Shown here: positions 17,247 through 59,396 of the stretch, piece after piece
Position numbering within the stretch: position 1 is the stretch's first letter
Layout of the letters: every line of letters begins with the position of its first letter
Assembly (NCBI RefSeq): GCF_964213995.1
Contig: NW_027590479.1
Coordinates: 62,001 to 126,000, forward strand
Reading direction: 5' to 3'
Source: Mustelus asterias
Taxonomy: Eukaryota
DNA length: 64,000 nucleotides
Program-made: the position numbers and the translations under genes
The notes under the pieces: generated by a model
Told to the model about the DNA's origin: nothing
Seen by the model: the letters and a program-made list of their open reading frames with translations, nothing else
Database searches by the model: none

Positions 17247-17778
17247 ATGCTTTTGGTCATACTGGCGGCGCTCTCGCACAGTCAGCACTGGATGATGTTC
17301 ATCAAACCGGATAAATATATTGATGGCAACTTGATTAACAATCTAAAATATCCATGCGATGCGCAGAATGGAGGTTCCACAAACTATCGCAGATACAAAC
17401 ACATTTACGTTAACACTTGATATTTCATTCTTCTGCCTTTCCAGACGGGCTGTGCGTAGATCCAGTAACTCAGTCACCGGTGACAATAACCGCATCGGAA
17501 AGGGGCTTTGGCGCAGTTACATTGTAATTAGAGAGAAAAGGATATGCACAGCATGCAATGGTATCAGCAGAAACCGGCACAGCCACCGACATGGATTATT
17601 TCCAAAATATTAACAATGAAGGAAGATAAAGTTTCAGGACGATATCTGGCGATAGCTAACAAGTCTAATCAGAACGGTTACCTTAATATCAGCCACCTTC
17701 AGTGTGGGGGACGGGGCTGTCAATTACTGTGCAATTAGGCACAACGTTAGATTACAGTTAAAACCCCGTACAAAGACC
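17247..17778 (+). pseudogene. TCR alpha/delta-type V pseudogene #1 (leader 17247-17280, V exon 17445-17739, 23-RSS 17740-17778)
   Basis: Leader MLLVILAALSH + GT donor; TTCCAG acceptor; DPVTQSP..LHCN*..MQWYQQKPAQPP..NYCAIR with two frameshifts and a stop; CACAACG-23 bp-ACAAAGACC. Confidence 0.85.
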
Positions 17779-18239
17779 TCAGCCATTTTCTACAGGTCCA
17801 TTAAGTTTGCTTCTGCGAGAATGGTTTGTCCCCGGGTTCACGAAGGCAGTCAGATCTATTTATCGGGCATTTTGTCCTGATTGAGATCGGCAAAGAAGCA
17901 GTTTGGGAAATCCCCATGCTGCGATTTACATAGTAAGCACGAACCAGGAATATCATCAGCAGGGTGAACTCAGGTGAAAATATGGCAGGAAATTACAGGC
18001 TGTTCTTTCAGAATTGCTAGCTCAAATACCACGACCCCCCCCCCCCCCCCAGACACCGAATCTCCGGTACACTTGGAGTATGCTAAATACTAATTGGATA
18101 AAAATCTTAAGTGCTTAACAAATGAGATGTAGAATAACTGCCACATAGACTCACCAAACAACACGACTATTATTATAAATCCGGGACACAGATGCCTACC
18201 CATCAGCACGAAGATAGTCGATTCTCACAGCTGACATTG

Positions 18240-19040
18240 GTGTATTGTGTGGTGGTGAGCTGCCTTCTTGAAGCGCTGCCCGAGATGCAGGTACACCCAC
18301 GTGCTGTTAGTGAGGGAGTTCCAGGGTGTTGACCCAGTGAGCGTGAAGGAATAGCGATATATTTCCAAGTAAGGATGTGGAATAACTTGGAAGGGAACCT
18401 CGAGGTTGTCGTGTTCCCATTTGTCTGCTGCCCTTGTCCTTCGTGTGTTTGGATTTTGCGATCTAAAAAAAACCTTGGTGAGTTGCTGCAGTGTATCCTG
18501 TAGATGGTGCACACGGCTGCCACTGTTCGTCTGTGGTGGCAGGAATGGATGTTTATGGAATGGGTAGCAATCAAGCGGGCTGCTTTGTCATGTATCTTGT
18601 CGACCTTATTGAGTTTCGTTGGAGCTACATTCATCCAAGCAAGCAGAGAGTATTCCATCACACTCCTGACTTGTACCTTATAGATGCTGGACAGGCTTTG
18701 GGGAGTCACGAGGCGTGTTACTCGCCGCAGGATTCATTAGATCTGCTCTGGTAGCCACTGTATTAATATTCCTGGGTCCAGTTCAATTTTCGGTCAACTC
18801 CCAGGATGTAGATGAGGGTGGGGGTGGGGAAGGGGGTGTGTGTGGGGGCGGGGGGGGGGTGGAGGTGGGGGAGGTGGGGAGGCGGGAGCAGGGGGGAGGA
18901 TTCAGCGATGGCAATGCCATTGAACATCAAGGAACGTTGGTTAGATCCTCTCTTTTAAGAGATGATCATGGTCTGGAACTTGTGCGACGTGAATGTTGCT
19001 TGTTTATCAGATCAAACCTGAATATTGTTTAGGTCTTGCG
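18240..19040 (-). mobile_element. Old LINE (CR1/L2-clade) RT/3' fragment
   Basis: ORF 18203-18709: IYKVQVRSVMEYSLLAW..HHRRTVAAVCTIY. Confidence 0.7.
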
Positions 19041-19073
19041 GTATTTGGGCATAGACCAAATGTCTGATTCGAG

Positions 19074-19366
19074 ACATAGAAACATAGAAAAAGGAGCAGG
19101 AGGAGGCCATTCGGACCTTTCAGCCTGCTCCGCCTTTCATTACGATCATGGCTGATCGTCCAACTCAATAGCCTAATCCTGCTTTACCCCCACAACTTTT
19201 GATCTCATTTGCCCAAAGTGCTATTTCTAGCCGCCTCTTGAATGCATTCAATGTTTTGCCATCAACTACTTACTGTGGTAATGAATTTCACAGGCTCGCC
19301 ACTCTTTGGGTGAAGAAATGTCTCCTCACCTCCGTCCTAAATGGTCTACCCCGATTCCTCAGACTG
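19074..19366 (-). mobile_element. CR1 3' end fragment
   Basis: CATAGAAACATAGAAA tail; FFTQRVASL.NSLP-like coding on the minus strand. Confidence 0.75.
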
Positions 19367-19624
19367 TAAGACAATGCAGTATCATCCTTAAATTAAAGAA
19401 TGCGGATGATTTTCTCATCACAAAACCCACTCTCACTGAGTGACTGCTTCTGCAATCGGATAAGTTATGCCCTGACTGTCAATATGTCTGAGCAAAGCCG
19501 CTGTCAGGAATTGCAAAGCCCTGACAACCGCGCTCACATACTCCATTTCCTGTTCTCGTTCTGACATGTCTTGCCTGCAGTGTGCTGTTTATTTGATCGC
19601 TACGGCAACTGTAAACAGGGGTGA

Positions 19625-20121
19625 GGTTTTTGTACAGTGACTGCCGTCTTTCCTCTCAGTGTGGGCTCTATCGCACAGTAATATAAAGCGGTATCCGTGC
19701 TCTCCGTGTTTTCAATTATCAACTGGCTCGATTTGTCCGCAGTGGAAAGTTCCAATTCGAATCGGTCCTTTCTCTCTTTGCTATCCGAGAATCTACGTAT
19801 CATCCACTGCAGACCTTGACCGGGTTTTTGTCTGTACCGATACATTCTGTAAATGCTGGACATATCATAGCTGCAGTTTAGCCGCACCGAATCCCCGCTC
19901 TGGGCTGTTCTGGCTATGGGAGTTTGTGAAACTTAGTCCGAACGACACCGATCTATAAAAAAAAACATTTAGTCAATTAGGCACTGGAGCAAAATGTATT
20001 TAAATAGCAGTCTCGACACGTTATAGAGTAAATTTCTTGCACTTAGAACCATAATAAAATGGAACAGACTCATTTGCACCGTGTAATACAATAAAAATGT
20101 CAATCGGAAAATGGAGCACAT
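19625..20121 (-). pseudogene. TCR alpha/delta-type V pseudogene #2 (V exon 19952-19664; 23-RSS 19663-19625; putative leader from 20121)
   Basis: T-rich TATAG acceptor; RCRSD*VSQTP..SVRLNCSY..MYRYRQKPGQGLQW..DTALYYCAIE; in-frame TAA and conserved Trp changed to Arg; CACACTG-23 bp-ACAAAAACC; leader donor not canonical. Confidence 0.9.
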
Positions 20122-21184
20122 CTCACAGCAGAAAGGCACGAAGCGAATCAACAACTTCAATATTCCCCTAATGTAAGATGCACCAGAGAAACCTTCAGAC
20201 ACTGGGGTTTCCTGCAATCTGATTGGCTGGAATCAGACTCTGTTCTTCCGATGTAAGGATGTGTTTGTTGATCCACTGCTGCTTCTCTTCCGGGTCACGT
20301 GTGAACAAGTCAATTGTTTATAAACCAGGACCCTGTTTTACTGCAGTTATTTTAGTTGATAAAAGTGTTTAAAGCTTAACTGTTCAACAATGAAGGCATT
20401 GATTTCAAATTGAGGTAATTATTCATGCGAATTCCACCCAAGTTGCAGTTCAAGTGATCGTTTTAAATACAAGCAGCTCCTCACGCTGCTCAGGTCTGGC
20501 TCCGTTATCCTCGGAAACTCTACATTGGGATCTCAATTGAAGCATCAACGATTTCGTTGATGTCCTGTACCGTTCTGGTTATTTTCTTTTCTATGCTCAT
20601 CATCCTCACACTGACAAGAGGAATATCCTGATTTTATTTATAACGTCTCATTTTATAATTTCCCCGTGCTTTCCGAAAGGGAAGAATTCGGAAATGTAAT
20701 GTCGAATATTTACAACCTACAAACAGCAATAGCAACATTAGCAAGGCGTAGGAATATATTGCGTAAAATATAAACATCCTATTTGTGCTAATAATAATTT
20801 GTTTCCATAGTTACTCATTTATTATTTTTTATTTAATAAAGTTACTGAACACTTTTGTGAGTCTGGAGCTCTTTCCAACATTGAACCCAAACAATCTCTC
20901 ACTGCCCTCTGGTGGCGCCGACATTAGAAGTAAGTTACAGCGTCCAAGTATTTTCACCTCCGGGAATCAAGATTGTTTTGAACAATGACCGATCCTAAAC
21001 TCTGCAACAGTTTTTAAATGTTTTCTCTTTGCATTTTTAAATTGGAAACTTGTGGTGACGAATCTGTTTTCTCATGGGTTAATCGTCTTCACAATTATTA
21101 ATTGCTTCATATTTTATCCCACTGCCTCGTCTTTCCTTGTCCATCTTCCCCTTTGCCATTTAAACTTTCTTACCTTCCACTGAA

Positions 21185-21410
21185 TTTACACATTCTCCCC
21201 GTGTCTGCGTGGGTTTCCTCCAGTTGTTCTGGTTTTCTCCCACAGTCCAAGGATGTGCAAGTTAGGTTGATTGGCCATGATAAATTGGTTCTTATTTCGG
21301 GCGATCAGCAGGGTACAAATGTGGGGTTACGGGAATAGGGTGGGATTGTTATCAGTGCAGGCTCGATGGGTCGAATGGCCTCCTACTGTGCTGTAGGGAT
21401 TTTATGATTC
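21185..21410 (+). mobile_element. V-SINE/HE1-like SINE, 5'-truncated
   Basis: CACATTCTCCCCGTGTCTGCGTGGGTTTCC core and TATGATTCTA tail. Confidence 0.75.
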
Positions 21411-21774
21411 TAAATGTAATCAATGCTTCGCTCTTCACAGATGCAGTCAGATTGAATGAATGTTCCAGAATTTCCAGATGTTCTTATTACAGGCATCAAG
21501 CATTTGCAGCATGATGTCTTTGGTTAACTGGTGTGTTCTCAGAATGGGGAAATTATTTGCAAAGAAAATTGAGATCTCCCTCTAAGCTGAATCCCGATGG
21601 GTAAAATCAGAATGATAATAAGATCATCATTAGCCTACAATGAAAAGTGATTCACTCGGTCATCACACTTATTGATACAATAGCCGTGTCACACTGGAGA
21701 GCGACAATTAAATGCATCATGGTGGAGAATGGATTCACACCTCGGCCGGATGTGATGCAGTACACGGGATTTCA

Positions 21775-22135
21775 TGAAATCATAGAATCATACAGCGAAA
21801 AAGAGGAATTTCGGCCCATCGAGTCCGCACCAACACATTAGTAACACCCGCAATCCCACCCAATCCCATTTACCAGCACTTGGCCCATAGCCCTGAAAGT
21901 CATGACGTGCCAAGTGCTCATCCAGATTGTTTTTAAAGGATATGAGGCAACCCGCATCTACCACCCTCAGAGGCAGCACATTCCAGACCGTCAACACCGT
22001 CTGGGTGAAAAAGGTTTTCCTCACAATCCCTTAAACCTCCTGCCCCTCATCTTGAACCTATGTACCTTGTCGATTGTCCCTTCAAATAAGGAGAACAGTT
22101 GCACCTTATCCACTGTGTCCATGCCCCTCATAACC
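21775..22135 (-). mobile_element. CR1 3' end fragment
   Basis: ORF 21788-22024 RKTFFTQTVLTVWNVLP; CATAGAATCATA tail. Confidence 0.75.
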
Positions 22136-22876
22136 ATAAGGGTCATAGCGAGAGAAGACAGGAATGAACGTTTCCCGTTGGCCTCTTTTAAGGTCAAACC
22201 GAATAAACAAACTCAATTTAAGTCAGGACAAAGTAAAAGGGGCAGCTCCCCAAAAGTGTGTGGGGGGAGGGGGGGGGGGGGGGGAGGAACAGCCCGAACA
22301 AAAATCAAAGTACAAAGGAAACTTGAAAACATCAAATTAAAGCGTTTCCCGTTGGCAGAAGGATCAATAGCTCGGATTAAAGATTTCAGGTAAGGAGGCT
22401 TAGTGGGGGTGTGAGCAAAACTCGTTACACCCCGGAGGTGGTGGGAAACTGGAACTCACTGCTGAATGGGTGGTGGAGGCAGAGACCCACTTAACTTTGA
22501 GGAAGTATTTAGATGTGTACCTGTGATGTCAAGGCATGCAAGGCTATGGGCCCAGAGCTGAACAAAATGGGAGTATAATAAGGAAGTGGTTGCTTGAGCG
22601 ATGCAGACGCGTTGGGGCAAAGGGCCGTTTCTGTGCTGTAGCCCTGTGACTCTATGACTGGGTACTTGCCCCTGTGAAACATGACTATTTCTGCTGACAT
22701 CTCCCAATACGGCTTGAGATGCACTAATTTGATGTAGATTTAGGGACATTGTCATGTGAGTTTTTCACATATCAATGGTAGCCGCATAATGACACATTGT
22801 TGTCGCACTTCATGTTGCTGCCGCATTGAATGAAATATGTCAAATGCAATGAGTGACCATTTGCAGCGGACGGCCA

Positions 22877-22948
22877 CGTTCGGCATTCTAATGATGAGCA
22901 GGGTGGACTCTGCATCCAGCGATCGGAGTTCAAATCTCGGCAGGACTT
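22877..22948 (+). pseudogene. tRNA-Gln(CTG) pseudogene
   Basis: TGGACTCTGCATCCAGCGATCGGAGTTCAAATCTCGG; 5' half degenerate. Confidence 0.75.
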
Positions 22949-23627
22949 TGATTTTCTTTGCCAAAGCAAATGACTGATTTGCTGCAGGAAATTTTGTTTA
23001 AATTTCACAGAAAGTGTTCCTTTAAACATTGAGAAAATTTCAGCATGTTCCACCGCACTGACATTGCAGCGATTGACTCGCCTGGCGTCACCGCATCAGC
23101 CCCAGAGTGCGATTGCTAAAGAACACAAATCGCTGAGAGGCGGAGAAACCACCTATCGGTGTCATTCACTCGTTCCCAATTTATACAAGAGGTGGGAGAG
23201 GAATAGTGGTTCCTCTCAGATTCGAGGTGCAGAGTACTAACCGTTACTCCATGAAAGTGAAGCGGACCGAGCCATAGCTAAGGCACGAGGCCTTTCTCCG
23301 AAAACGTGCACACACGTACACAAACACACGCACACACACGCACGCACGCGCAAACGCACACGCACACGCACACACACTCACATTTGCTCAAAGATTGCCA
23401 GACTCCAGTCGAATGATTGTTCTTTTCTGACACCAACTGCTTCTTTCTTTCATCAGAGGAATGAAAGAGCAGCGAAAGGATGAAAAAAACACACTGATGT
23501 GCAGGCATCTGGCGCCAGAGACTCAGCAATGTGCATTGTAATAACAGTTGAACTGGCTGACAAATTGTCCTCTCCGTCCGTACTTTGTAAGCAATTTAAA
23601 TGAATGTCAGTCAGCAAAGAAAAAATG

Positions 23628-23698
23628 AGGTTCTGCCGAGATTTGAACTCGGATCGCTGGATTCGTTATCAGTGAATTCACTATTACACCACAGACCC
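23628..23698 (-). pseudogene. tRNA-Gln pseudogene
   Basis: Minus strand has AATCCAGCGATCCGAGTTCAAATCTCGGCAGAACCT; anticodon arm degenerate. Confidence 0.75.
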
Positions 23699-23789
23699 CA
23701 GAACACATGAACAAGCGGCAAATGATCACTCAAAGCATTTGACCTTTTTCATTCAACGTGGCAGCAACAGCAGTGCTAAAACAGTGTGT

Positions 23790-24265
23790 CGTCATACGCC
23801 ACTATTGATGGGATCAAAGGAAATTTGTCAAATTGGATGCAGAATTGTCTGAGTGGCACGGAGCAGACGGTGAATTTCGAGGGCAGTTTTTCAAACTGGA
23901 AGCCTATGTCCACTGAGGTCCCGAAGTGATCAGCGTTGGTGTTCTTGCATCCCTGGTTTGCATGATTGATTTCGATTTGAATGTTGGAGGCTTGAGCAGT
24001 AATTTTGCGGATGATATAAACATTGGAGAGGTGGTGAATAGGGACAAGGATAGCCTTCTTTCACAGATGGATATTGACAGGGTGGTCAGCTGGGCTGATC
24101 AATGGCAAATGGAATTCGATCCGGATGTGAGGTGATGCGGTTGGGCAGAACGAACAATGCAAGCGAATGCATGATGAAGGCAGGACCCTGGGAATCGCCG
24201 AGGGACATTGGTGTGCATGTACTGCGGTCCCTAAATGTAGCAGGACAGGTGAAGAAAGCGGATAA
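23790..24265 (+). mobile_element. Degenerate CR1 RT fragment inside the tRNA array
   Basis: NFADDINIG..WADQWQMEFDP in ORF 23926-24135. Confidence 0.7.
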
Positions 24266-36119: not shown

Positions 36120-38148
36120 ATGCGGTCCCTCCACCCTGGAAGCATTGAATGAATCTGTACCAGAGGTCACCATTGCAGATGTCAGAGCAACTTTCTGAAA
36201 GGTCAACCCACGGAAAGCAACAGGCCCGGATGGGGTACACGGACGAGCACTCAGATTCAGCACGGATCAGGTGCTGAGGGGATTCGCAGACATATTCAAT
36301 CTCTCTTTACAATAATTTGGGGTCCCTATCGACCGTCATCCCAGTACCAAAGAAAAGCCAAGCAGCGTGCCTCAATGAATACCATCCGGTGGCTCTGACA
36401 TCCATCATTCCGAAGTGCTCTGAAAGGCTACTAAAAGAACAAAGAACAATACAGCACAGGAACGGCCCTTCGGCCCTCCAAGCCCGCGCCGCTCCCTGGT
36501 CCAAACTAGACCATTCTTTTGTATCCCTCCATTCCCACTCTGTTCATGTGGCTATCTAGATAAGTCTTAAACGTTCCCAGTGTGCCCGCCTCCACCACCT
36601 TGCCTGGCAGCGCATTCCAGGTGCCCACCACACTCTGTGTAAAATATGTCCTTCTGATATCCGTGTTAAACCTCCCCCCCCACTCCCCCTCCCCCCTCAC
36701 CATGAACCTATCACCCCTCGTGAACGTCACCACCGACCTGGGAAAAAGTTTCCCACAGTTCACCCTATCTATGTCTTTCATAATTTTATACACCTCTATT
36801 AGGTCTCCCCTCATCCTCCGTCTTTCCACACGTGGCACGAATCAATTGCAGTGTCCAGGACTGCCTGGATCCACTGCATTTCGCTACCGCCGCGACAGGT
36901 CCACAGCAGGCGCCATCTCACTGGCCCTACACTCAACCCTGGAAAGCTATATGACAAAGACACTTATTTCAGGCTCCTATTGATTGACTACAGCTCAGCA
37001 TTCAACATCATTATTCCTACGAACTTCATCTCCAAATTCCGTGGCCTGGGGCCTGACCCCTCCCTTGCGACTGAATCCTGAACTTCCTAACCCGCAGACC
37101 ACAATCAGTAAAGATTGGCAACAACACCTCCTCCACGGTCGTCCTCAACATCGGTGCCTCACAAACCTGAGTGCTCTGTCCTCAGCCCCTTACTCTACTC
37201 CTTGTGCACCTGTGTGGCTAAATTCCCCTCCAACTCGATTTTGAAGTTTTGAAGCATCACTGTAGTGGTTCGGAACACAAACAATGGCGAGGCGGAGCAC
37301 AGGCAAGAGATAGAGAATCTGGCGAACGTTTGCGGCGACAATAATCTCTCCCTCAATGTCAACAAAACAAAAGAGATTGTCATCGACTTCAGGAAGCATG
37401 GTGGAGAACATACCCTTGTCTAATTCAATTGGCGATGAAGTAGAAATGGTCGAGAGCTTCATGTTTTTTGATGTCCAGATCACCAAAAACCTGTCCTCGC
37501 GTACCCTCCACCCAGTCCCGCCGCCCCCCCCCCCCCCTCCCCCCCGCCCCCTGCCCTCCACTCCCAATACCGACATCTGGTTAAAAAAGCCCACAAACGC
37601 CTGTAAATTCTCAGAAATCGAAGGAAATTTGGCATGTCCGCTACGACTCTCACCCATTTTTACAGATGCACCATAAAAAACATTATTTCTGATTGTACCA
37701 TAGCTTGCTATGGTTCCTGCTTTGTCTAAGACCGCAAGAAACTACAAAGCCCACTCCATCACGCTAACCAGCCTCCCACCCATTGACACTGTTGACACTT
37801 CCCGCTACCTCGGCAAAGCAGTCAGCATAATTAATGACCCCATGCACCCCAGAAATGATCTCTTCCCCCTTCTTCAGTCGGGAAAAATATTCAAATGTCT
37901 GAGGACACGTACCAAACGATTCAAGAACAGCTTCTTCCCTGCTGCTATCAGACTTTTCAATGGACCAATCTCGCACTAAGTTGATCCTTCTCTACACCCT
38001 AGCTATGATTGTAACACTGCATTCTGTACTCTCATTTCTTTCTCTATGAACAGTATTCCTTGTCTATATAGCGCATAACAAATACTACTTTTCCACTGTA
38101 TGCCAATACATGTGACAATAATAAATCAAATCAAATCAAATCAAATCA
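36120..38148 (+). mobile_element. Rex1/Babar-like LINE remnant interrupted by CR1
   Basis: [64 protein letters not shown]; (ATCAA)n tail at ~38125. Confidence 0.8.
36433..36829 (-). mobile_element. CR1 3' fragment nested in the Rex1-like element
   Basis: ERRRMRGDLIEVYKIM..YFTQSVVGTWNALP; AAAGAACAAAGAAC tail. Confidence 0.85.
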
Positions 38149-38771
38149 AGCACCCACAGAAACATAGTGAATGTTGAGAAGTTCTTTGTTTTAACACAGC
38201 GTGTCACTGAATGGGACTCTGAATGACGGTAACTGGCAACATCCCATAATAGTCTGATTAAGTCAGAATGTCAATCACCAGTCTCGCTCAGAATGAGGAG
38301 AAAGTGAAGCTCCCCTCTCTATTCCCCTTCCCCACCATTGACAGTCCTGGCCTCTGCAGCAAATTCCCGTCTGCAAATAAAACCCTGATTGATCCATCTT
38401 CATTATTACGAACAAAAGCCTGTTTGCAGCTGAAGCTCTGATATTGTGTGATTATATTTTTTTCTAACCAAATGCCATGTTTTACCAATTTATTAATAAT
38501 GCGTGTTAGTTAATTGACTGTTCTTTTGTTCACAGCCGTTCAGTGTGACGATCAAAGCTCCCATCCTGAGCAGATGCTGTCTCGGGAAAGGGAATCGCTT
38601 GAACTGAACTGTCGGGTCCCCGATGGTTCTGGTATCTGTTGGGTGAATGTTTGATCCGATGTTATTCTGGTTTCCTCTCGCTGTATTTGAACAGCTGACA
38701 GCGCCGTTGTTCATTGTGACTGCCTGCCCGCGATTCTAAACAACCCGCAGCAGACAGGAGCACCTATCTAG

Positions 38772-39540
38772 AGTTTTCCTACGGCTGTGGGAATGTTTTC
38801 TATCACTGTGAGACTGAAAGCGCAGTAATACGCAGCAGAGTCAGTCCACTACAGACCCAATGTATTTAAACTAGTCACTTTTTTCCCACTCTGGAGTTGC
38901 TGCAAAATCTGCTTTATCCTCAGTATCCCAGGAGCTTTTACTCACGATAAATTCCGTTTGTAGATCTGGGAGCTGTCGATACCAATCTAAATAAAGTTTA
39001 GATTCATTTATTTGTCAGAAGTAATGTTTGCATTAACACTGAAATGAAGTTACTGTGGAATCCCCTCGGTCGCCACACTCCGGCGGCTGTTCGGGTCAAT
39101 GCACCTAACCAGGACGTCTTTCAGAATGTGGGAGGAAACCACAGCACGCAGATGAAACCCACGCAGACACGGGGAGAACGTGCAAACTCCACACAGACAG
39201 TGACCCAAGCCAGGAATCAAACCCGCGTCCCTGGTCCTGTGAAGCACTGTGCTACCCTGCCGCCAGTGCCAGCAATAATAGTTGCTGGCTGTGGCATCAA
39301 AGGTGCAGGTCATTGTCACCGCTTCTCCTTGTGCCTTAACATCTGAGGAGCGTCGCTGAGTCACAGAATCTTAGTTAGATCTGGAGAGAGAAGAAATATA
39401 ATCACATCTGAACAGTTCAGGCTATAGGGTGCTAAGATTTGAACCGTGCTTGATAAATGCGAGAAAAGATTAAATGTATTTAATCTCCAAGCACCTGCTC
39501 GGAATGATCCGCACACAACCCAGATGCTGAGCAGCCGCAT
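38772..39540 (-). pseudogene. TCR delta/alpha-type V pseudogene #3 (leader 39540-39495; V 39380-38811 split by a SINE; 23-RSS 38810-38772)
   Basis: 46-nt leader MRLLSIWVVCGSFRA + GT; TCTCTCCAG acceptor; DSVTQ..GEAVTMTCTFDA..NYY[SINE]LDWYRQLP..DKADFA..DSAAYYCAFS; CACAGTG-23 bp-AGGAAAACT; frameshifts and stops. Confidence 0.9.
38993..39272 (-). mobile_element. V-SINE inserted in V pseudogene #3
   Basis: GGCAGGGTAGCACAGTG head, V-SINE core and tail matching 8640-8940. Confidence 0.88.
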
Positions 39541-41020: not shown

Positions 41021-41029
41021 TGAGGCTTG

Positions 41030-42891: not shown

Positions 42892-45800
42892 ATGCATGGA
42901 CCAGCGAATGGCCCTTTCTATGCCGTTTACTATCCCGTTCTCGCTGCAGTTGGCATTCCAGGTAATTTTTTAATTCCAAAAAGAACTTTGTTTTTGTTCG
43001 CGATGATTATATTGGTTGCATTGTGATGTCTCGACAGAATAGAATGGAGTGAATATTAATCATTCATGTAACTTCTCATGTTCAATAACACTTGTTCTTG
43101 TTAGAAATATCGAAATGATTTGGAGGAAAATTTAACTGGTTTGATTCGTAAGTTTGCAGGCGACACAAAGATTGGTGGAATTGTGGATAGGGATGATGAC
43201 TGTCAGAGGATGCATCAGGATATAGATTTGTTGGAGACCTGGGCAGAGAGATGGTAGATGGAGTTCATAGAACATAGAACAGTACAGCACAGAACAGGCC
43301 CTTCGGCCCAAGATCAAGCTATCCCACTCCCTATCATCCTGGTGTGCTCCATGTGCCTATCCAATAACCGCTTAAATGTTCCTAAAGTGTCTGACTCCAC
43401 TATCACTGCAGGCAGTCCATTCCACACCCCAACCACTCTCCGCGTAAAGAACCTACCTCTGATATCCTTCCTGTATCTCCCACCACGAACCCTATAGTTA
43501 TGCCCCCTTGTAATAGCTCCATCCACCCGAGGAAATAGACTTTGAACGTTCACTCTATCTATCCCCTTCATCATTTTATAAACCTCTATTAAGTCTCCCC
43601 TCAGCCCCCTCCGCTCCAGAGAGAACAGCCCGAGCTCCCTCAACCTTTCCTCATAAGACCTACCCTCCAAACCAGGCAGCATTCTGGTAAATCTCCTCTG
43701 CACTCTTTCCAGCGCTTCCACATCCTTCTTATAGTGAGGTGACCAGAACTGCCCAAAATATTCCAAATGTGGTCTCACCAAGGTCCTGTACAGTTGCAGC
43801 ATAACCCCATGGCTCTTAAACTCCAACCCCCTGTTAATAAAAGCTAACACACTATAGGCCTTCTTCACAGCTCTATCCACTTGAGTGGCAACCTTTAGAG
43901 ATCTGGGGATATGAACTCCAAGATCTCTCTGTTCCTCCACACTCTTCGGAACCCTACCTTTGACCCTGTAATCCACATTTAAATTAGTCCTACCAAAATG
44001 AATCACCTCACATTTATCAGGGTTAAACTCCGGAGAAATGTGAGGTAATGCAGAAAGTTCAATCCGGAGAAATGTGAGGTAATGCATTTTGGAAGGTCTG
44101 ATAAAGTTGGGAAATATACAGTAAATGGCTGATCCCTTAAGAGTATTGATAGGCAGAGTAATCTGGGTATACAGCTACGCAGGTCACTGAAAGTGGCAAC
44201 GCAGGTGGAGAAGGTAGTCAAGATGGCATATGGCATGCTTGCTTTCATCAGCCAGGGCATTCAGTTGAAAAATTGGCAAGTCATATTGCAGTCTTATTGA
44301 ATCTTAGTTAGGCCGCACTTGGGAAATAATGTTCAATTCTGTTCGCCACACTACCAGAAGGATGTGGAGTCATTGGAGAGGGTACAGAAAAGACTTTCGA
44401 AAATGTTGCCTGGAAGGAAGGGCATTAGCTATGAGGAGAGGTTGGAGAAACTTGGTTTGTTCTCACTGCAACGACGGAGGCTGAGGGGCGACCTGATAGT
44501 CGTCTAAAGGATTATGAGGGTCATGGACAGAGTAGATAATCAGAAGGTTCTTCCCAGGGCACAAGAGTCAATTACTAGGAGGCATAGGTTTACGGTGTGA
44601 AGGGCAAATATTAAAGGACATTTACGAGGCAAATTCTCTACACAGAGAGTGGTGGGTGCCTGGAACTCGCTGCCAGGTGAGGTAGTGGAAACAGGTGCAA
44701 CCGTGACTTTTAAGTGGCGTCTTGACAAGTACATGAATAGGATGGGAATAGAGGGATAATGTTCCCAGATTGGTCGGGTATTTTTTTCAGTTCAGTCGGG
44801 CAGCATGGCCGGTGCAGGCTTTTAGGGCCGCAGTGCCTGCTCTTGTCCTGTAATTTTCTTTGTTCTTTGTTATTTGTTCTTAAAACGTGAAACCTTCTGG
44901 TGTAGATCTTCTGTTAAATATGAGGTTTGTGGGCTTCAATTCAAACGATAATGCCCTGACCAGGATCCGAAAAGAAAGGCCTAATGTTTGGAATCAGATT
45001 TTCAACATTTTTAACCCTCCCTTACAGCCAATTTGATGGCTATCGTGATCCTATCCAGAGGACGGTGTGGACTGTCCCAGTGCATCACCTACTACCTGGT
45101 GGCAATCGCGGTGACTGATTTCCTGGTTATGATTTCTGCTGTCATCCTCAACCGGATTGGTGGCATTTACTTTCGATATAGTGTCCTCTCCACCACCCCC
45201 GGGTGCACGGTCAGCAGCGTCCTGGTATATACCACCCGTGATGGGTCCGTCTGGCTGACTGTAGCCTTCACCATCGACCGTTTTGTGGCCATCTGCTGCC
45301 AGAGCCTGAAGACCAGATACTGCACCGAGAAAACAGCATTGCTGGTTATCGGAATAGTCTGTGCACTGAGCTGTGTCAAAAACATCCCTTTCTTCTTCAC
45401 CTATCAGCCCTTGTATATCCTAGACGGGGTGCCTTGGTTCTGTGATATCAAGTCCACCTTCTACACGTTAACCATCTGGCAGGCCTATCTCTGGCTAGAC
45501 CGCATATTAACACCATTGTTTCCATTCTTCCTGATCCTGCTGCTCAACGCTCTGACTGTGAGGCACATCTTAGCAGCCAGCAGGGCCCGCAGGAGACTCC
45601 GGGGTTCCGAGAGTCGGGGAGACATGGAGATGGAAAACCGCAAGCGGTCTATTGTCCTGCTTTTCGCCATCTCCCTCAGCTTCCTCCTCCTGTGGGTCAT
45701 ATATGTCGGTCATTTCCTCTACGTACAGATTTCGGGTGAGCCATACTTCACCGGCCTGGATTTCAATGACCCGCAGTACATCCTTCAGGAGACGACCAAC

Positions 45801-45929
45801 ATGCTGCAACTACTTAGCTCCTGTACTAACATCTTCATTTACGCAGTGATTCAGACCAGATTCAGGGAAGAGATCAAGAACCTGTTGATGTCTCCGTTCG
45901 CCACCCTCAAAGGTTTTCTGAAACGGTGA
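42892..45929 (+). CDS. GPR139-like class A GPCR #2; exon 1 42892-42961, exon 2 45028-45929; 323 aa
   Basis: MHGPANGPFYAVYYPVLAAVGIP + GTAAT donor at 42962; CCCTTACAG acceptor at 45027; phase-1 join GIP-A-NLMAI; DRFVAICC, TM3 and ECL2 Cys, SCTNIFIY; open frame; AATAAA at 46045. Confidence 0.92.
43110..44880 (+). mobile_element. Degenerate CR1 (host) in the GPCR #2 intron
   Basis: RT-like coding at 43110-43266, resuming at ~44031-44880; TTCTTTG tail. Confidence 0.82.
43266..44030 (-). mobile_element. Younger CR1 3' fragment nested antisense in the host CR1
   Basis: Open ORF 43314-44087 (EFNPDKCEVIHFG..VWNGLP); CATAGAACATAGAAC tail. Confidence 0.92.
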
Positions 45930-46329: not shown

Positions 46330-46484
46330 GTTGCAGAGTAAAGCAAAACAGATATCGTGGCTGGAATTTCGAAATGTGAGAGTTGAAGACACCGTTTCCT
46401 ATTACGGTGAAGCTCCGTACTGGTATGATGACTGGTCTGGGACTCACAATGGAAGCAACCTGAACAGATATCTGTGCAAAATTA
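46330..46484 (+). pseudogene. 3' fragment of a NAR-TCR/IgNAR-like V segment with RSS
   Basis: SKAKQISWLEFRNVRVEDTVSYYGEAPYWYDDWSG (YYC>YYG), then CACAATG at 46445, a 23-24 bp spacer and (T)GCAAAATTA; 5' two-thirds and leader not recognisable. Confidence 0.6.
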
Positions 46485-51040: not shown

Positions 51041-51701
51041 ACATCTCTTTTAGGAGCGTCCAGGGCAATTCATTACCTTTAGGTATTGACTGAGGCATAG
51101 GATCCATAAGTGAATACTCAATAAATTATCATAACATGCTTAAAGACAATTACAGTTAATTGCAGCTCACTTTTGTAAACAATGAAAAAATATATGTTTC
51201 AGATGCAACCACATCCACACTAACACATACAAGTGCACTCACAGGGGTGGTATGGTTACAAAATGGCTAACACTGCTCTCTTACGACTAACCCAGGTTCA
51301 ATGTTGGCCTTGGGGGTCTGTCTGTGTGAGGTTGCACGTTCTGCCTCTTGGGTTTCTTTCTCGGTGCTTCGTTTCCTCCCACAGCCCAAAGATGTGCATC
51401 TTCGGTGGATTGGTCATGCTAAATTAACCTTTAGTGTCTATTTGCATTGCAACATTGAGACGTTTATTCAGTTCCTAAGTCTCTTTTGAATCAGATCATG
51501 TTACAAGATTCACCCCAAGCTTCCAAACAAATATTACACACAATACGAGAGTGATTAGATATCGTGCACAACAGCTAATAGTCATTAAGAAGACGAAACG
51601 TATTTTTCCAACCAAAGGCGATTGACAGCTTTCACCCATACGCATATATAATATTTTTAAAAAGTTAATATCCATCAAGTCAACTAGTTCTCTTTCTCTC
51701 C

Positions 51702-51742
<41 letters not shown>

Positions 51743-52417
51743 ACACTAACTATCAAATGCATTTTGTAGAGAAGTAATAACTGAGACAGTCTCCGTTTTA
51801 TTATTAGAACCCAATGTAATACAAATCGAGTCACACGTCCGTTTAATAGTGAATTAAATAGAGCCGAACACCATAATAACCGAGAAGGAGCCTAATGGAA
51901 CATAATGGACACTTTATGCAGATAAACAACACTGGAGAAATGAAAACTCGTAGTTTATCTCGCGGCATTTCCACGTGTATTAATAAATGAAACTGCATAG
52001 AATGTAATGTGAATAGATACAATGTCTGTGACAATAATCTCTCAGAAGGAGTCAAATGTAGTATATAAAGAGGCATGGCCTAGTGCATGACTGGATGCGA
52101 CTCCACCTAAAGTAATCAGTGTCTAACGTAGCAATAACCGAGAAAGGATTAATTGGGGCACAAATAGAAGCAAGGCACTGTGCATTAATAAACTAAACTT
52201 CAGATCGCGTTATGAACATACGTACAGTGTTGGAAGAAAGATAAAATGAAACATGTCTAGTCCAGTCATAACTGAAACAATTCATATGCAATAAAACGAT
52301 TGCATGGTTAAATGCAGTAATAATTGAAGTATTCAAACTCAATAATTGAGTGTAATCAAACTAAACTCAATGTGCAATGAAATATAAACGCACACATGGC
52401 CGCACTATAGCAAGTGT

Positions 52418-52700
52418 GGGGCGGCATAGTGGTACAGTGGTTAGCACGGCTGCCTCACAGCGCCAGCGACCTGGTTTCGTTTCCTGGCTTAGGTTTTCCC
52501 TCTGTCTCTGTCTATATTGATTTGCCTCCGGGTGCTCCGGCTTCCTCCCACAGTCCAAAATATGTGCTGGTTCTGTGCATTTTCCATGCTAACCTCTCCC
52601 GCAGTGTACCCGAACAAGTGCCAGAGAGTGGCGACTGGGGGATTTTCACAATAACTCAATTGCAGTGTTAATGTAAGCCTACTTGAGACTCTAATAAATA
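52418..52700 (+). mobile_element. V-SINE
   Basis: GGGCGGCATAGTGGTACAGTGGTTAGCAC head, core and tail. Confidence 0.8.
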
Positions 52701-53104
52701 AGTAAAAACGTAAAAAAAGTTCAGTTGTAGGTTCCACGGAATCATAGCCTAGTTCAGTAAAAACAGTATAAGATCTGATGTTACGAAACCTGAGAGGATC
52801 AATTGCCGTGGTGACAGAGAAAGACTTGGTACAGTAATACCGCTCCAATAATACTCAAAGATTGCTGAGTGTTTCTGGCATGTTTTTTTTTCAGATCCCA
52901 TGCATCTGCAGTATCATGTTTTTGCGCAACCAGACATTGGATGACTAAAAGGATGGTCAATAAAGGGACAGTTTTATGGATTGAGTTAAATGAGGATAGT
53001 GAGATAAAGAGATGTAGTGAGGGAATAATAGAGTTTAAGGGCTAGATAGGTGAAGGCATCACAAACTGAACGAGATGAGCGCTTTCTGATTGTATGGACA
53101 TTTA

Positions 53105-53420
53105 TCCTATCGTTCCCGCAGGACTCATCCAGCCAATTGGAGAGAATCCCATTACACTCCTGACTTGTAACTTGTGGATGTTGGACAGGTTTTGGGGAGT
53201 CAAGAAGTGAGTTATTCGCCACAGGATGCTTATCAGGTGTTTTGATAATCTAGCGGAACAATAATCTGGCAATCCAGCATCCAGGGACTGCTCAGTGGTA
53301 TTCGCCAACGTGTTTAAAATGGGCGATTCAGCGTTGGTAATGCCATTGAATGTCAAGGGGCAATTATAAGAAATTTTCATGTTGGAGATGTCGTTGCATG
53401 TCACTTGTGTGGCGCAAAAC
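53105..53420 (-). mobile_element. Old LINE (CR1/L2-clade) fragment
   Basis: LTPQNLSNIHKLQVRSVMGFSP in ORF 53102-53404. Confidence 0.6.
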
Positions 53421-53558
53421 GGTATTAATAATCATCAATTCAGAAAGAGAGAAAGTTAAATTGACCAATGCCGATAAATTCAATAGATTACTGTACTTTA
53501 GATTACGATAGCATACTAGATGCTATAACTACCATAATTTACAAAAATAAATCATTGT

Positions 53559-53651
53559 TTTCACTAATTATCATCAGTTCACAAACATGAATAATTATTT
53601 CACCAATTACCATCAATTCACAAAGATAAATAATTATTTCACCAATTATTT
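53559..53651. repeat. ~39-bp AT-rich tandem repeat (~2.3 copies)
   Basis: TTTCAC(T/C)AATTA(T/C)CATCA(G/A)TTCACAAA..AATAATTA repeated. Confidence 0.7.
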
Positions 53652-54799
53652 TCAGAATTTTATTATATACGAAATGCAGTGGTTTATTTAATGCAATTTT
53701 TTGACATTGAAATGCATTGAGATCACTTTGGCATTTCTGTCACCAAGGAATTAATTCTGTCCCAGATCTCAGTGAGAAATGGAATTAATTCAGACCGAGG
53801 ACAATGAGCAGCTACTCGGCAGCCTCTGCGCTTTATTGGCAAGTAATCCCCTCACCATCAGACAGAAACTCCTGATATATAACTGGAGTGTGTGATCAGT
53901 TTGAAAGTGACAGGATGAATGGAAAAAAAAAACCTGTACATTAGACGAGGTTGTTGACTCTTAAAATCCCGACTAATTATTAAACTATTTGGGAATGTTT
54001 CTGTTGCCACTGAGGATATGCTCAATGATTTGTTGCACATGAAAGGACCACAAGTTCGAAATATATGCCCTCCTTAACCTAATCATTTTCCCTTATTTTT
54101 ATCTTGGAAATGAATATTTTCACTATCAGTAAAGAACCATCAGTCCCGCCGAAAAATCTCCTCCGTCTCTTAATGAATGCTAGCTCCCGGTAATCTAGGG
54201 ATGGATTTCACCCAGAAAATCTGGATGAGTGGAAGGTATTAAACAGACACAAATAAAATAAAGCAGCTGCTTCAACTTATGAAGTAGTCAAGTACAAATA
54301 TGGGAATGTAGAACACCAGCTTTCAGGGACATCTACTGACGCATCCATCAATTAATTCACTGATTTCTCAATTCAAGTTTTCAGGCACCCAACTTTCATT
54401 CATTCCTGCATCAACGCAATCATCCGTTTATTTTTTGGGCTGATGGTGGCGTAATATTCATGCCATTAGACGTAATCCAGAGGCTCAGATCAATGATGTG
54501 GGGATAGGGGTTTACAGTGGCAGCTGGTGAGATTGAAATGAAACAATCTGGAAGATGTACCGATGGTGACCAGGGAATCCTCTCTCATTCTCCAATGTAG
54601 AAAATCCGCCATCCCTACCTGCTCTCACCAGGATGTGACTCCAGACGGACCACAATATGGCTGAACCTTCATTGTCTTATGAGATGCCGTAGCAAAGCGC
54701 TCAATTCATGAACAGTTAGGGGCGGGAAAGGAATATTGGTCTTGACAGTGATCCCGCAGCCCATGAAAACAAAGGGAGAAAAAAAATATGCATGTTTAC

Positions 54800-56250
54800 G
54801 CATTACTACAGCTATAGAAAACCTTGTGCAGGCCGTACTTGCAGTACTGCCTGGAGTTCTGGTCACCACACTACTAGAAGGACGTGGAAGCTTTGGAGAG
54901 AGTGCAATGAAGTTTCATCACGATGTTGCCTGGTCTCGAGGGTGTTGCCTATGAGCAGAGGTTGAATAAACTAGGATTGTTTCCGAGGAAAATGCAACTG
55001 GTTTGATCAGTAAGTTTGCTGATGACACAAAGGTTGGTGGATTTGCAGATCGTGATTAGGACGTTGAGAGGATACAGCAGGACATAAATCTGTTGGAGAC
55101 TTAGGCGGAGAGATGCAAGATAGAGTTTACTCCGGACAAATATGAGGTAATGCGTCAAGAAGGCATACAGCATGCTTACCTTCCTCGGTCGGGGCATTGA
55201 GTTTAAAAATTGGCAAGTCATGTATAAAAAAATCCAAGTTTATAATAACCTGTGCTCATAGCCAACACCATCGAGACCAGGCATGTTGCAGCTTTATAGA
55301 ACCTTAGTTAGGCTGGATTTGGAATACAGTGTTCAATACTGGTCACCACACTACCAGAAGGATGTGGAGGCTTTGGACAGAGTACAGAACAGATTTAACA
55401 GGATGTTGCATGGAATGGAGGGCATTAGCGATGCTGAAAGTTTGGAGAAACTTGGTTTGTTCTCACTGGAACGACGGAGGTTGAAGGGCGATCTCATAGA
55501 TGTCTACCAGATTACGAGGGGCGTGGACAGAGTGGATAGTCAGAAACTTTTTCGCAGGGTGGAAGAGTCAGTCACTGGGGGGCATCGGTTTGACGTGCGA
55601 GGGGCAAGGTTTAAAGGCGCTGGACCAGGCAAGTTTTTTACACAGAGCGTGGTGGGTGCCTGGAACTCGCTGGTAGGGGAGGTCGTGGAAGCAGAGACGA
55701 CAGGGGCGCCTTGACAAATGCATGAAGAGGATGGGAATAGAAAGATACGATCCCCAGAAGGGGGGGTTTAAGTTCAGTCTGGCAGCATGATCGGTGCAGG
55801 CTTTTTAGACAATAATTGTTCTTTGTTCTTTGTTTTCACTGGAAAGACGGAGGCTGAGGGGAGACCTGATAGTGGTCTAGAAAATTTTGAGAGACAGACA
55901 TGATGGATAGTCAGAGGCTGTTTCGAAGGCGGTAGTGTCAATTACAAGGGGGGACAGGCTCAAGGTGTAAGGGTGAAAATTTATGGGAGGTATGTGCGGA
56001 AAGTTTTTCAGGCAGAAAGTGCTGGGTGCCTGGAACCCGCTACCAGAGCAGGTGGTGGAAGCAGGCACATTCGCATCATTTAAGAGGTAACTGCGTGGGT
56101 ACATGAATATGGAGGAAATAGAGGGGTACAGACCAAGTAAGGGCAGAAAGTTTCTTCTTTAGTTTTGTTGGGACATTATAATCGGCACAGGCTTGGAGGG
56201 CCAAAAGGCCTGCTCCTGTACTGTAATTTTCTTTATTCTTTGTTCTTTTT
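54800..56250 (+). mobile_element. Cluster of degenerate CR1 fragments
   Basis: LQLYRTLVRLDLEYSVQYWSPHY..AWNSL (55283-55714) plus flanking fragments with TTCTTTG tails. Confidence 0.85.
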
Positions 56251-57124
56251 CTTTAACATCAGTCCTCTCTTTGAGTCATCTCTCACAGTCTACCTGCATT
56301 TCTTTTCAACCAACCATCGCAATGTCCTGATGTGTTGGTGAGATCACCATTGTTGCTAACAATGTGCCAGAGAACCTGGTTAACTTTCCTTTCCTGAGAA
56401 ATGGGAACAGTTCAAACACGTTTACAACTTGATAAAAGTAAATTGCCTCCAGTCTTGTTGCCAGGTAGATTTGTTTATGAATATTCCTCATTGACACTGT
56501 TAAGAATTTGACATTTGTACCCAACATTCTCTGCCTGAAAAACTTCCCCCACACATCTCCCTTAGAGTTTACAGACAAGCGGTCAGTACTGAGGAAACAA
56601 ATCTTTGATTTGCAAGTATAAACACCACCAGATGTTTCCTGTAATTAACTTTGGGCGTTTGGCAACCGGCTGGATTGCTGCTAAATGCTGTGTGGGGCAG
56701 ATTAGCGTGAATCCTTATGGAACAAAATGAGATTTAGCCTTTTAGACAATAAATGTTTCATTCCAACAAGAAATGCACATTTTAAATGGTACCCATTCTA
56801 AGCAAATGTTTTAAATGAATACCCTCATCATTATGTGGTTAAATTGTATCAGAAAATAATAAATTGACCAGATGCTATTTTGTTCGTTTAACTTCTCGTA
56901 GGTGTCATTCCAATAATTAAAGCCTATTTGTGAACGACTTAATAAAATGCGACACAGAACTGTTTCCAATTTTGCAGTCTGCTGAGATCAGTGTAATGGC
57001 AACACAATCAATAAAATGATAAGCAAATCATGAATTTGCCTTGAACAGAAGTGATCCCGAGAATATTGCCAGAGATTTGCAACTCATTTAAACGGCAGAA
57101 TCTCTTACAGCAATCAATGAAACG

Positions 57125-57435
57125 TTGCAGTGCAGAAGAAGGCCATTCGGCCCTTCAGGTCTACACAGACAACAATCCCACCCAGGCCCTATCCCATATA
57201 TTTACCCTGTCACTCCCTCTAACTTAAGCATGCCAGGATACTAAGTGGTAATTGAGCATGGCCAATCAACATAACCCGCACATCTTTGCACTGTGGGAGG
57301 AAACCGGACCACCTGGAGGAAACCCAGGCAAACATGGGGAGAATTCGCAAATTCCACAATGCAGTGAAAAGAGCTGGGAATTGTATCCCGATCCTTGGAG
57401 CAGTGCTAACTGTGGTACTATGTCACCGTGCTGCC
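57125..57435 (-). mobile_element. Degenerate HE1/V-SINE
   Basis: CCGCACATCTTTGCACTGTGGGAGGAAACCGG core; head at ~57430. Confidence 0.72.
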
Positions 57436-58366
57436 CTTATAACTAAATAGCACCGTGTTCTATTGTGCAGTATAATCTGATTTCGATTATTTAACAGTCC
57501 TGATCATAGCTGCCAATGAGTGGAGAAGCGGTCAGGCTTGGTTCAATGGAAGATAAACATTTATTCTTGTGATATTGTGTAATAGGCCACAAAGTCCTTA
57601 TATCCTGTGTTCCCAATACCAGTGAATGTTAGACAGCCGGTGGCCAATTAAATGAGCAGCAATAATTTGGATGCTGAAGGACAACTTTACTTGTCACCCT
57701 GTCCGTTCTGATTTTCTGTCAAAAGCCCATGCCAATTTTATGTTTCTCTCTCAACTCACTGCGTAATTATCATGTAAGGGATTTTCTTTACCGCTAATTT
57801 TAATGAGATTGTTATGCGCTCAGAAGCATTTTGAAAAATGTTAGGAGACTCCCGATAATGTGAACAGTTTTTTGTTATTTCGAAAACCAAATTGTATCGT
57901 GATAGCCATTCACAACGTAAGTATCATAATTTGGCTCATCCCTCGCAATTAGTTACAGAAATCGATAACAATTCATCTAATAAATGATGCTTTATTATTT
58001 GAATGAGATTGAGACCCTGCATTGTTGCAAAATAGACTGATTGTCTCTTTATTCTCTGTAAACGTAATTTAGTTTAGTTTTATCTGCTTGCTAAAGGGTG
58101 TGGAAATTAAATAATTACATTTACAATAGAATCAGCGTTTTTAATGCAGAGACGATGAACTGCAAAATCTCCATTAGAAATGAGACATTACAATGAATCT
58201 ATTCAGTCAAACCAATTTTCCGATACCAATAAAAGGTCAATTTTAATAACAATGCATTGTAAATGTCAGAGTCCATTCTGTTAGGCGCATGGAAGATGGG
58301 ACGTGGATCCAATCGCCGCTTCCACCAGGGAATCAAAAGGCTGGAAAGCCGCGCCCTTCAGCCGGG

Positions 58367-58374
58367 TATTTAAA
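58367..58374 (+). promoter_or_regulatory. TATA-like box of the IgH V promoter
   Basis: TATTTAAA ~90-100 bp upstream of the leader ATG. Confidence 0.45.
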
Positions 58375-58465
58375 TGCCACTCACTGGGACCGGAATACAA
58401 CAGTCCGGGAGCTGGTGTGTTCACTGAGTTCCTGACACAACCATTTCCCCCAAATGACCAGAAGG

Positions 58466-58954
58466 ATGAGGTCGACGATTTCTCTCAGTTTGTTGCTGAC
58501 TTTCTTATCCGGTGAGCAGATTTATTGTCCAAGCCTCTCACTGTTACTGTCTCATTGTTATTTTATCTATGGAATGTTGCAGAGTCAGCAATCATTTCAC
58601 CAGGATTAATCCTCTTGTTTTTTGATATATTTGTACAGGTGTCCAGTCGGAGATTATGTTAGCTCAGCCAAAAGCAGAGCCCGGGCATCCCGGAGGCTCC
58701 GTGAGACTGACCAGCAAAACCTACGGGTTCAATCTCGGTAGCGCTCACATGCACTGGATCCGACAGGTTCCCGGAGAGGCGCCGGAGTGGTTGGTTTACG
58801 ACCAAACTTCATCAAGCAACCTGTACGCCCCAGGGATTCAGAATCGATTTACTCCCTCCAAAGACACTTCAACCAACATCTTCTCTTTGGCCGTAACTGA
58901 CCTGAAGACCCAAGACACCGCCATCTATTACTGTGCAGTAGACCATGGGGGTAT
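58466..58954 (+). CDS. IGHV: Immunoglobulin heavy-chain (IgM-type) V segment, apparently germline-joined to D (leader 58466-58511; exon 58639-58954)
   Basis: [15 protein letters not shown] + GTGAG donor; TACAG acceptor; [50 protein letters not shown]; open frame; first Cys replaced by Ser (AGC 58713-58715). Confidence 0.92.
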
Positions 58955-58982
58955 CACAGCATTAACTGCCAACACAAAAGTC
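58955..58982 (+). other. 12-bp-spacer recombination signal sequence
   Basis: CACAGCA-TTAACTGCCAAC-ACAAAAGTC. Confidence 0.88.
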
Positions 58983-59309
58983 CCCTCAGCGCGTATTAAG
59001 TGAGGCTAGGTCAGTGTCGCTTTTACAGTCCAACTCTATTTACAGTGAAGTACTGTTTATGTTCAACTCTGTTCAAATAACACAGTTTAACATGGGAGAT
59101 CTGTGATAACCATTCAATTATCAGTCGGTATTTTCAATAACATGTTCATGTGACACTCTGTGAAATAGAAAAGATTCCGATCATTTATGGAGAGCGAATG
59201 GTACTAAAAATACAATTATAATTTCATGAAAATTCATTGTGAATTTACTTTGCCGCAAGATTATGAATATTTTTTTAAAAGGTGGTTTATGTCGTTTTTG
59301 TGCAGATCC

Positions 59310-59396
59310 GGTTATTGAATCACCCAGCCCAGGGGGTGTAACACAGTGATCCTATGGACGACTGGGGACAAGGGACCATGTTGACGGTGACTGCAG
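59310..59396 (+). other. IGHJ: IgH J segment (59349-59396) with 23-bp RSS (59310-59348)
   Basis: GGTTATTGA-23 bp-CACAGTG, then PMDDWGQGTMLTVTA and phase-1 GTATGA donor at 59397. Confidence 0.92.

Follow-up and report, generated by a model that had tools for sequence, protein, structure and literature searches.

Here, we analyzed a 42,150-nt range (positions 17,247-59,396) inside a 64-kb stretch of DNA of the shark Mustelus asterias, in which gene segments of T-cell receptors (TCR) and of immunoglobulin heavy chains (IgH) lie side by side. The whole stretch, called the window in the following, corresponds to positions 62,001-126,000 of contig NW_027590479.1 (C447), an unplaced contig of 313 kb without gaps in a genome of 3.68 Gb. 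Positions given without a contig refer to the window. The segments named by the original prediction, which was made from the sequence alone, were confirmed as real. The window is a decayed, repeatedly copied patch of the shark's mixed IgH/TCR region, a layout that has itself been described already. The studied range contains the following V (variable), D (diversity) and J (joining) elements, including one of new antigen receptor (NAR) type, with their recombination signal sequences (RSS); interspersed repeats account for at least 11,183 of its 42,150 nt.

17247..17778, + strand: V1, TCR alpha/delta V pseudogene (leader 17247; 23-RSS 17740-17778)
19625..20121, - strand: V2, TCR alpha/delta-type V pseudogene (23-RSS 19663-19625)
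38772..39540, - strand: V3, TCR alpha/delta V pseudogene with frameshift and stop (23-RSS 38810-38772)
46337..46472, + strand: 3' remnant of a NAR-TCR V germline-joined to D (decayed 12-RSS 46445-46472)
58466..58982, + strand: IgM VH pseudogene germline-joined to D2 (leader 58466-58511; 12-RSS 58955-58982)
59310..59396, + strand: JH with 23-RSS and splice donor

All three TCR V segments possess a split leader, a V exon and a 23-RSS. Open-frame V exons supplied 23 RSS for the training of a matrix, which on either strand of the 64 kb reached a score of at least 16 only at the 23-RSS sites of V1, V2 and V3. Sequence identities between the families are low, namely 34% for V1 against the family of V2 and 29% for V3 against the family of V1. 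The claim of three TCR-type V pseudogenes from different families, in mixed orientation and all with a 23-RSS, is borne out. The exon of V1 carries two 1-nt insertions and a stop, shares 85% nucleotide identity with an open-frame paralogue on C315 and is followed by an RSS at the 17th percentile of scores. V2 shows a stop directly before framework region 1 and a conserved Trp changed to Arg; it matches the Pfam V-set with 54 bits and an open paralogue at 84% nucleotide identity, and its 23-RSS is good (70th percentile). The two form a convergent doublet, which recurs in V arrays on C315, C986, C1506 and others. V3 is interrupted by a 277-nt repeat (38986-39262), an insertion with 48 matches on the contig.

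The phylogenetic relationship was established in a tree of 55 rows, which included no verified TCR-gamma V and left out the 30-aa NAR fragment. V1 falls into a starred clade with the V of the TCR-alpha contig C546 (100/98), and V3 clusters, without a star (94/88), with a V from sawshark that model P0026 splices to C-delta. In the phylogenetic check proposed for the V segments, V1 thus comes out with TCR V and V3 probably does; all that the tree fixes for V2 is a separate family lying outside the Ig/beta-like clade, which is starred. With V2 as query, a homologue search scored 0/2 candidates.

The NAR fragment was detected by tblastn (E 1e-4) and shares 76% over 85 nt (blastn) with a NAR-TCR cassette on the same contig. 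Its DNA alignment scores are 106-145 to three NAR-TCR cassettes vs 26-34 to IgNAR/NAR-like loci, with shuffle maxima of 33-39. An IgNAR origin is ruled out, as the fragment aligns with the NAR-TCR cassettes, including the D-J intron, and not with the IgNAR loci. What had been announced as a NAR-like V fragment is therefore the V-D remnant of a NAR-TCR cassette. In the window, its 5' V, its own J and a supporting V-delta are absent. Besides that, two NAR-TCR cassettes in convergent orientation lie at C447:164,700-173,700, each of them V-D joined, and the 23-RSS that follows the supporting V-delta is repeated there in tandem with a 61-bp unit. The NAR V was found in twelve copies at 98-100%. A divergent NAR-like V at C71:2,929,530-2,929,781 groups with IgNAR V, with no consensus RSS found within 5 kb; as regards the synteny with PSMB5, IgW and UrIg2 that is expected of the elasmobranch antigen-receptor complex, only IgNAR-type V were seen on C71, at 0.74 and 1.00 Mb.

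In the IgM VH, the first Cys is replaced by Ser, and the segment still carries the D2 3' RSS together with its flank, as they occur in a split IgM cluster on C71. Decayed C-mu1-4 exons were found at C447:127,687-131,147, 1.7-5.1 kb beyond the window end, with 70-87% aa identity to an intact cluster and with a stop and a lost Cys in C-mu4. With its VD-J, the window holds the first part of a decayed IgM cluster and not a VH of TCR-delta type. The predicted IgH VD-J minicluster is thus present (VH with 12-RSS, JH with 23-RSS). Its proposed role as an embedded V for TCR-delta does not stand, because the VH sits in the IgM V clade of the tree (99/92), apart from the TRD-embedded VH clade, and has its own JH and four C-mu exons. 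Identity with TAILV or another TRD-embedded VH is ruled out on the same grounds. As predicted for the range, no TCR D, J or constant (C) segment was found in the window, nor on the whole 313-kb contig.

Copies of the block in the genome

At 96-99.7% and over 36,405-39,388 of the 42,150 nt, the block is collinear in all four further places that were looked at, namely C160, C770, C88 and C71:8.25-8.33 Mb. A chimeric assembly, the outcome that had been named as fatal to the original idea, is therefore ruled out by the recurrence of the same order. The NAR V-D junction is identical in 5/5 block copies, and the VH-D2 junction is the same in C160 and C770; the copies on C71 and C88 are without VH-J and keep C-mu. 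Overall, the copies share the same junctions and differ by indels, and some may be alleles. In addition, C447 carries internal segmental duplications (423-36,462 vs 183,395-280,045, 91-99%) that include a two-V block, and a minisatellite with a 41-bp unit in ~20 copies lies at 6882-7700 of the window.

The copy at C71:8.25-8.33 Mb (98%) lies inside a 20.4-Mb scaffold, which carries C-delta genes at 7.14, 11.04 and 12.27 Mb and a C-alpha gene at 18.42 Mb. The patch had been proposed to be either an edge of the hybrid TCR/IgH locus or an orphon region built from duplicated pieces of it. It does consist of duplicated pieces of the shark TCR alpha/delta-IgH region; neither "edge" nor "orphon" fits well, because the 98% copy sits inside a scaffold with C-delta and C-alpha. 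The strict form of the orphon idea, a block that has no linkage to a TCR D-J-C and that RAG cannot reach, could appeal to the missing TCR D, J and C on C447, to the unplaced state of this contig and to the window's five antigen-receptor segments all being dead. However, on C71 only 1.1 Mb separate the 98% copy from a C-delta, the window has TCR V with open frames and good RSS on its flanks, and a V joined to D-delta on another contig (C401) is 99.8% identical to a V 42 kb beyond the C160 copy. We therefore regard a true orphon as very unlikely.

TCR-delta constant genes and joins at D-delta

A C-delta query resulted in 19 matches among 40 candidates, located on 17 contigs and all open. Splice sites are present in 19/19 and a transmembrane exon within 9 kb in 17/19, and 14 distinct peptides are encoded. 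The exon 1 of every copy contains the motif CLxxxFxP (not CLxTD(x)F), given as the delta signature in PMC10322711. The catshark homologue (model P0023) fits, by name and by its 5.2-Mb contig, the IgWVTCRD row in Table S1 of PMC12227049.

Based on local alignments over ~7 kb, the C-delta modules fall into 16 groups at 99.5% identity, into 13 when 99% is required and into 6 when 98% is; the three copies on C71 are 96.3-97.4% alike (2.6-3.7% apart). A NAR-TCR V on the same strand lies at most 60 kb upstream of 15/19 C-delta (150 of 841 NAR candidates scored), and the four others are joined modules or lie on a 34-kb contig. A J with 12-RSS was found within ~25 kb upstream of 18/19 C-delta genes (among the best 100 of 154 J rows, with C850 taken from elsewhere). 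At the J1 loci, the D has intact 12/23 RSS in 12/16 cases and is joined in 4/16. Two long modules annotated in full comprise a NAR V-D-J, a supporting V-delta, a TCR V, two VH, D, 4-6 J and C-delta, and the same order is seen in a basking shark model (P0024). Two side observations concern this gene family: C973:96,616 shows a J-delta1 with an intact D and no C-delta match on the contig, a possible 20th module, and the sevengill shark Heptranchias perlo has two different C-delta models (P0025, P0027) on contigs of equal length, one with a NAR-TCR cassette, so that extra C-delta may be wider in sharks.

The depth of long contigs over C-delta was 90-170, compared with 28-32 over the single-copy gene RAG1, in run X1, and 26-42 compared with 7.5-7.7 in run X4 of a related organism (~92% alike). 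This 3-6-fold depth in two organisms suggests several C-delta copies per genome; it also argues for 19 being an overcount. The 19 assembled copies likely correspond to 5-10 per haploid genome, and it is likely that TCR-delta is built from many small clusters in this species, as shark antibodies are.

The C-alpha genes form a separate family, with 2 matches among 55 candidates that are 74% identical to each other. They were found through a J pattern and not by Pfam PF09291 (0/17); a PDB search did not separate C-alpha from C-delta.

C546:138,289-242,098: TCR-alpha J-C locus with 139 J segments
C71:18,370,833-18,431,904: TCR-alpha J-C locus with 34 J segments

Within 110 gap-free kb 5' of the J-alpha array on C71 there is no C-delta, and the nearest one is 6.1 Mb away. 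On C546, a gap of 200 N lies 9 kb before the first J, where an upstream C-delta could be hidden.

Seven modules show RAG-type joins to D-delta. One junction between V-delta and D-delta is common to C119, C96 and C436, whose copies are 95-98% alike; this join therefore predates the duplication and was inherited. The four others are as follows.

C71:11.02 Mb: TCR V joined to D-delta
C850: supporting V-delta joined to D-delta
C401: supporting V-delta joined to D-delta, with a possible P base
C138:215,914-218,936: open IgM leader-VH-23RSS-intron-12RSS-D1, joined at the D coding end to D-delta-23RSS-J-delta

The IgM part of the C138 join is 91% identical to an IgM cluster and open in frame, its D-delta-J-delta part is 96% identical to TRD modules, and an open C-delta follows 20 kb past the join. 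The closest unjoined D-J partners among 16 loci reach 96.5% for C138 and 98.1% for C71:11.02; this lack of a close partner favours a germline origin of both joins, as judged from the assembled sequences. In contrast, C401 and C850 have partners at 99.9% and may represent either reads of somatic origin or alleles that arose recently. A NAR-TCR cassette is hard-wired to its own D-J-C in four modules (C119, C96, C436 and C850), the supporting V being V-D joined only and not fully VJ joined. The near-identity of the C401 V with the V beyond the C160 block copy makes it likely that DNA from the window's neighbourhood has met D-delta at least once.

Altogether, we read the window as a decayed copy of a five-fold block, lying in a shark antigen-receptor region that has been shuffled by segmental duplication and in which the TCR-delta D-J-C module was multiplied into small clusters among IgM clusters (probability of roughly 0.78). 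Segmental duplication would have carried V doublets, tRNA copies, genes of G protein-coupled receptors (GPCR), NAR-TCR cassettes and IgM clusters along as passengers. RAG acting in germ cells could have pre-joined some V-D pairs, such as the window VH, the NAR remnant and some D-delta, before the window segments died through point mutations and inserted repeats. For intact V segments nearby, ordinary 12/23 joining likely gives access to whichever D-delta/J-delta/C-delta module is nearest; from the V segments of the window itself, only non-productive joins could result.

An alternative explanation would be that the window is ordinary debris and that the C-delta copies are mostly assembly redundancy, i.e. 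haplotigs and contigs containing reads from rearranged lymphocytes, with one to three TRD loci in total. Indeed, the D-J sides of C401 and C850 are 99.9% identical to an unrearranged module at C71:12.25 Mb, the V side of C401 is 99.8% identical to C160 with the join lying only 0.85 kb into the contig, some D-J pairs show 100% identity, and the depth ratios are 3-6x and not 19x. However, three C-delta copies at 96.3-97.4% share one scaffold, two alleles would not account for six classes at 98% and 14 distinct peptides, the C-delta depth is raised in the second organism too, and the best D-J partners of C138 and C71:11.02 reach no more than 96.5% and 98.1%, respectively. We thus consider this explanation improbable, though the most serious competitor.

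Several points nevertheless weigh against the multi-cluster reading. C447 contains neither C-delta nor C-alpha and is tied to the complex by paralogy; the position of V2 among the alpha/delta V is not fixed by the tree. Allelic or redundant contigs inflate the C-delta count, because 16/19 C-delta genes are, like the window, on unplaced contigs and the depth ratios of 3-6x are well under 16-19x. Contig depth is not copy number, run X1 possibly represents the very sample that was assembled, and a raw-read control was too sparse, with RAG1 covered in 9/30 bins.

Beyond the multi-cluster reading, the sequence data could also suggest that this lineage turned its TCR-delta translocon into many working mini-clusters, rewired by germ-cell RAG, with the V-delta/D-delta fusions, compact NAR-TCR genes resembling TCR-mu clusters, as its products and C138 as an inherited Ig/TCR hybrid caught at birth; we give this about even odds. 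If true, a multi-cluster TCR-delta would break the rule that shark Ig genes are organized in clusters and TCR genes in translocons, and one would have to ask by what means a single T cell is limited to a single delta chain. It would further provide a living example for the origin of VH-delta, TAILV and TCR-mu-type genes through a germline-fixed RAG join of an Ig cluster to D-delta.

GPCR genes and tRNA copies as proposed passengers

GPCR genes and tRNA copies lie between and beside the V segments.

42892..45929, + strand: intact two-exon class A GPCR, GPR139-like, 323 aa (exons 42892-42961 and 45028-45929; open spliced frame)
2459..9500 (upper end approximate), - strand: second GPCR of the same family, two exons, outside the studied range
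24326-24396, + strand: degenerate tRNA copy (ARAGORN, as the next four)
25489-25562, + strand: degenerate tRNA copy
27096-27169, - strand: degenerate tRNA copy
32632-32705, - strand: degenerate tRNA copy
34061-34134, - strand: degenerate tRNA copy

The predicted GPCR and tRNA genes between the segments thus amount to one intact GPCR and five tRNA copies; the second GPCR is outside the range and the tRNA copies are degenerate. The intact GPCR matches 7tm_1 with 80 bits and has GPR139 as best PDB match (E 2e-11). It belongs to a large local family: from 5,854 first-look candidates 130 were scored, and 130/130 match at E<=1e-30, including five other copies of its exon at 99-100% identity. Most of the scored matches to this family lie on C71, the antigen-receptor scaffold, and on its satellite contigs. 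A literature search found no title or abstract on a GPR139-like expansion. The second GPCR (7tm_1, 68 bits; exon-1 motif at 9463) shares 46% aa identity with the first. Four of the five tRNA copies reach the gathering cut-off of Rfam RF00005 (37-50 bits), two of the five have broken anticodon loops, and no further copies were found elsewhere on the 313-kb contig.

The original prediction also imagined that intact GPCRs inside a RAG-accessible locus might be deleted or inverted in lymphocytes; a functional effect of this in a live part of the locus was considered as well. The geometry would allow it: the gene is flanked by the 23-RSS of V2 and V3 and by two 12-RSS (46445 and 58955) in an orientation that permits deletion, with the V2 RSS at the 70th percentile. 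Yet these two 12-RSS score 6.6 and 13.6, compared with 16.9-22.5 for intact D 3' RSS, which puts them at percentiles 0 and 1 among 72 J-alpha RSS. Moreover, joins spanning the GPCR would be non-productive, and the exon exists in five further near-identical copies. Hence, a functional effect appears extremely improbable, and somatic loss of the GPCR is possible as a formally 12/23-compatible, but weak and unimportant, event.

Comparison with known systems

The mosaic of IgM, TCR V and NAR-TCR elements in the window is ordinary, because published tables report the same interleaving, and VD-J clusters and germline joins are known. In the elasmobranch region named AgRC, TCR alpha/delta V exons lie between IgH clusters (PMC12227049), and linkage of Ig and TCR genes was described previously (PMC3964593). 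For the great white shark, Table S1 shows alternating IgM, TCR V and NAR-TCR rows over ~9 Mb, one row being marked as a germline-joined NARTCR V (PMC12227049). The window resembles AgRC in its interleaved IgM clusters, TCR alpha/delta V and NAR-TCR elements in mixed orientation and in its many pseudogenes; linkage to TRD and TRA constant genes on one scaffold is seen for the 98% copy on C71, while the unplaced C447 carries neither. The same source describes TCR alpha/delta as a translocon, and in its tables no species has more than a single C gene each for TCR-delta and TCR-alpha, the two being neighbours in catshark and stingray (PMC12227049), compared with 19 C-delta and 2 C-alpha in this assembly. 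GPCR and tRNA passengers, present here, do not appear in these tables because they list only antigen-receptor and marker genes. By title and abstract we found no report of multiple shark TRDC; Criscitiello 2006, Deiss 2019, Ott 2021 or their supplements may mention extra C-delta.

Partly germline-joined IgM VD-J clusters are known in sharks (PMC5192425), where germline joins show P bases and few added bases, with little TdT activity (PMC2193156). The window cluster is built likewise, with V fused to D, the D 3' 12-RSS kept, a JH with 23-RSS and C-mu downstream (PMC5192425). It differs in being dead, and elsewhere in this genome similar joins link TCR V, and once an IgM D, to D-delta. In NAR-TCR, a NAR V-D-J is followed by a leaderless supporting V-delta and used with C-delta (PMC5931798, PMC6795676, PMC12227049); in contrast, the window holds only a V-D remnant, and four modules hard-wire the cassette to their own D-J-C.

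Extra or separated TRD/TRA loci are reported for newts, galliform birds, flounder, carp and alligator, the examples given being two-locus cases (PMC12698447). A TRD apart from TRA and a duplicated TRA are shared with these species; two loci there stand against six or more classes in the shark (PMC12698447). A parallel in design is TCR-mu of marsupials and monotremes, with repeated clusters of an outer V-D-J, a supporting V and C, encoding a three-domain receptor derived from TCR-delta (PMC7615758). TCR-mu was described as the only TCR with a germline-joined V as of 2023 (PMC7615758), with which the joined NARTCR row of Table S1 contrasts (PMC12227049). The shark's supporting V, whether unjoined or V-D joined, has yet to be joined to a J-delta; TCR V and VH segments are present in most modules as well, and the origin is independent. 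Consequently, the shark modules work like a TCR-mu-type cluster without being members of it.

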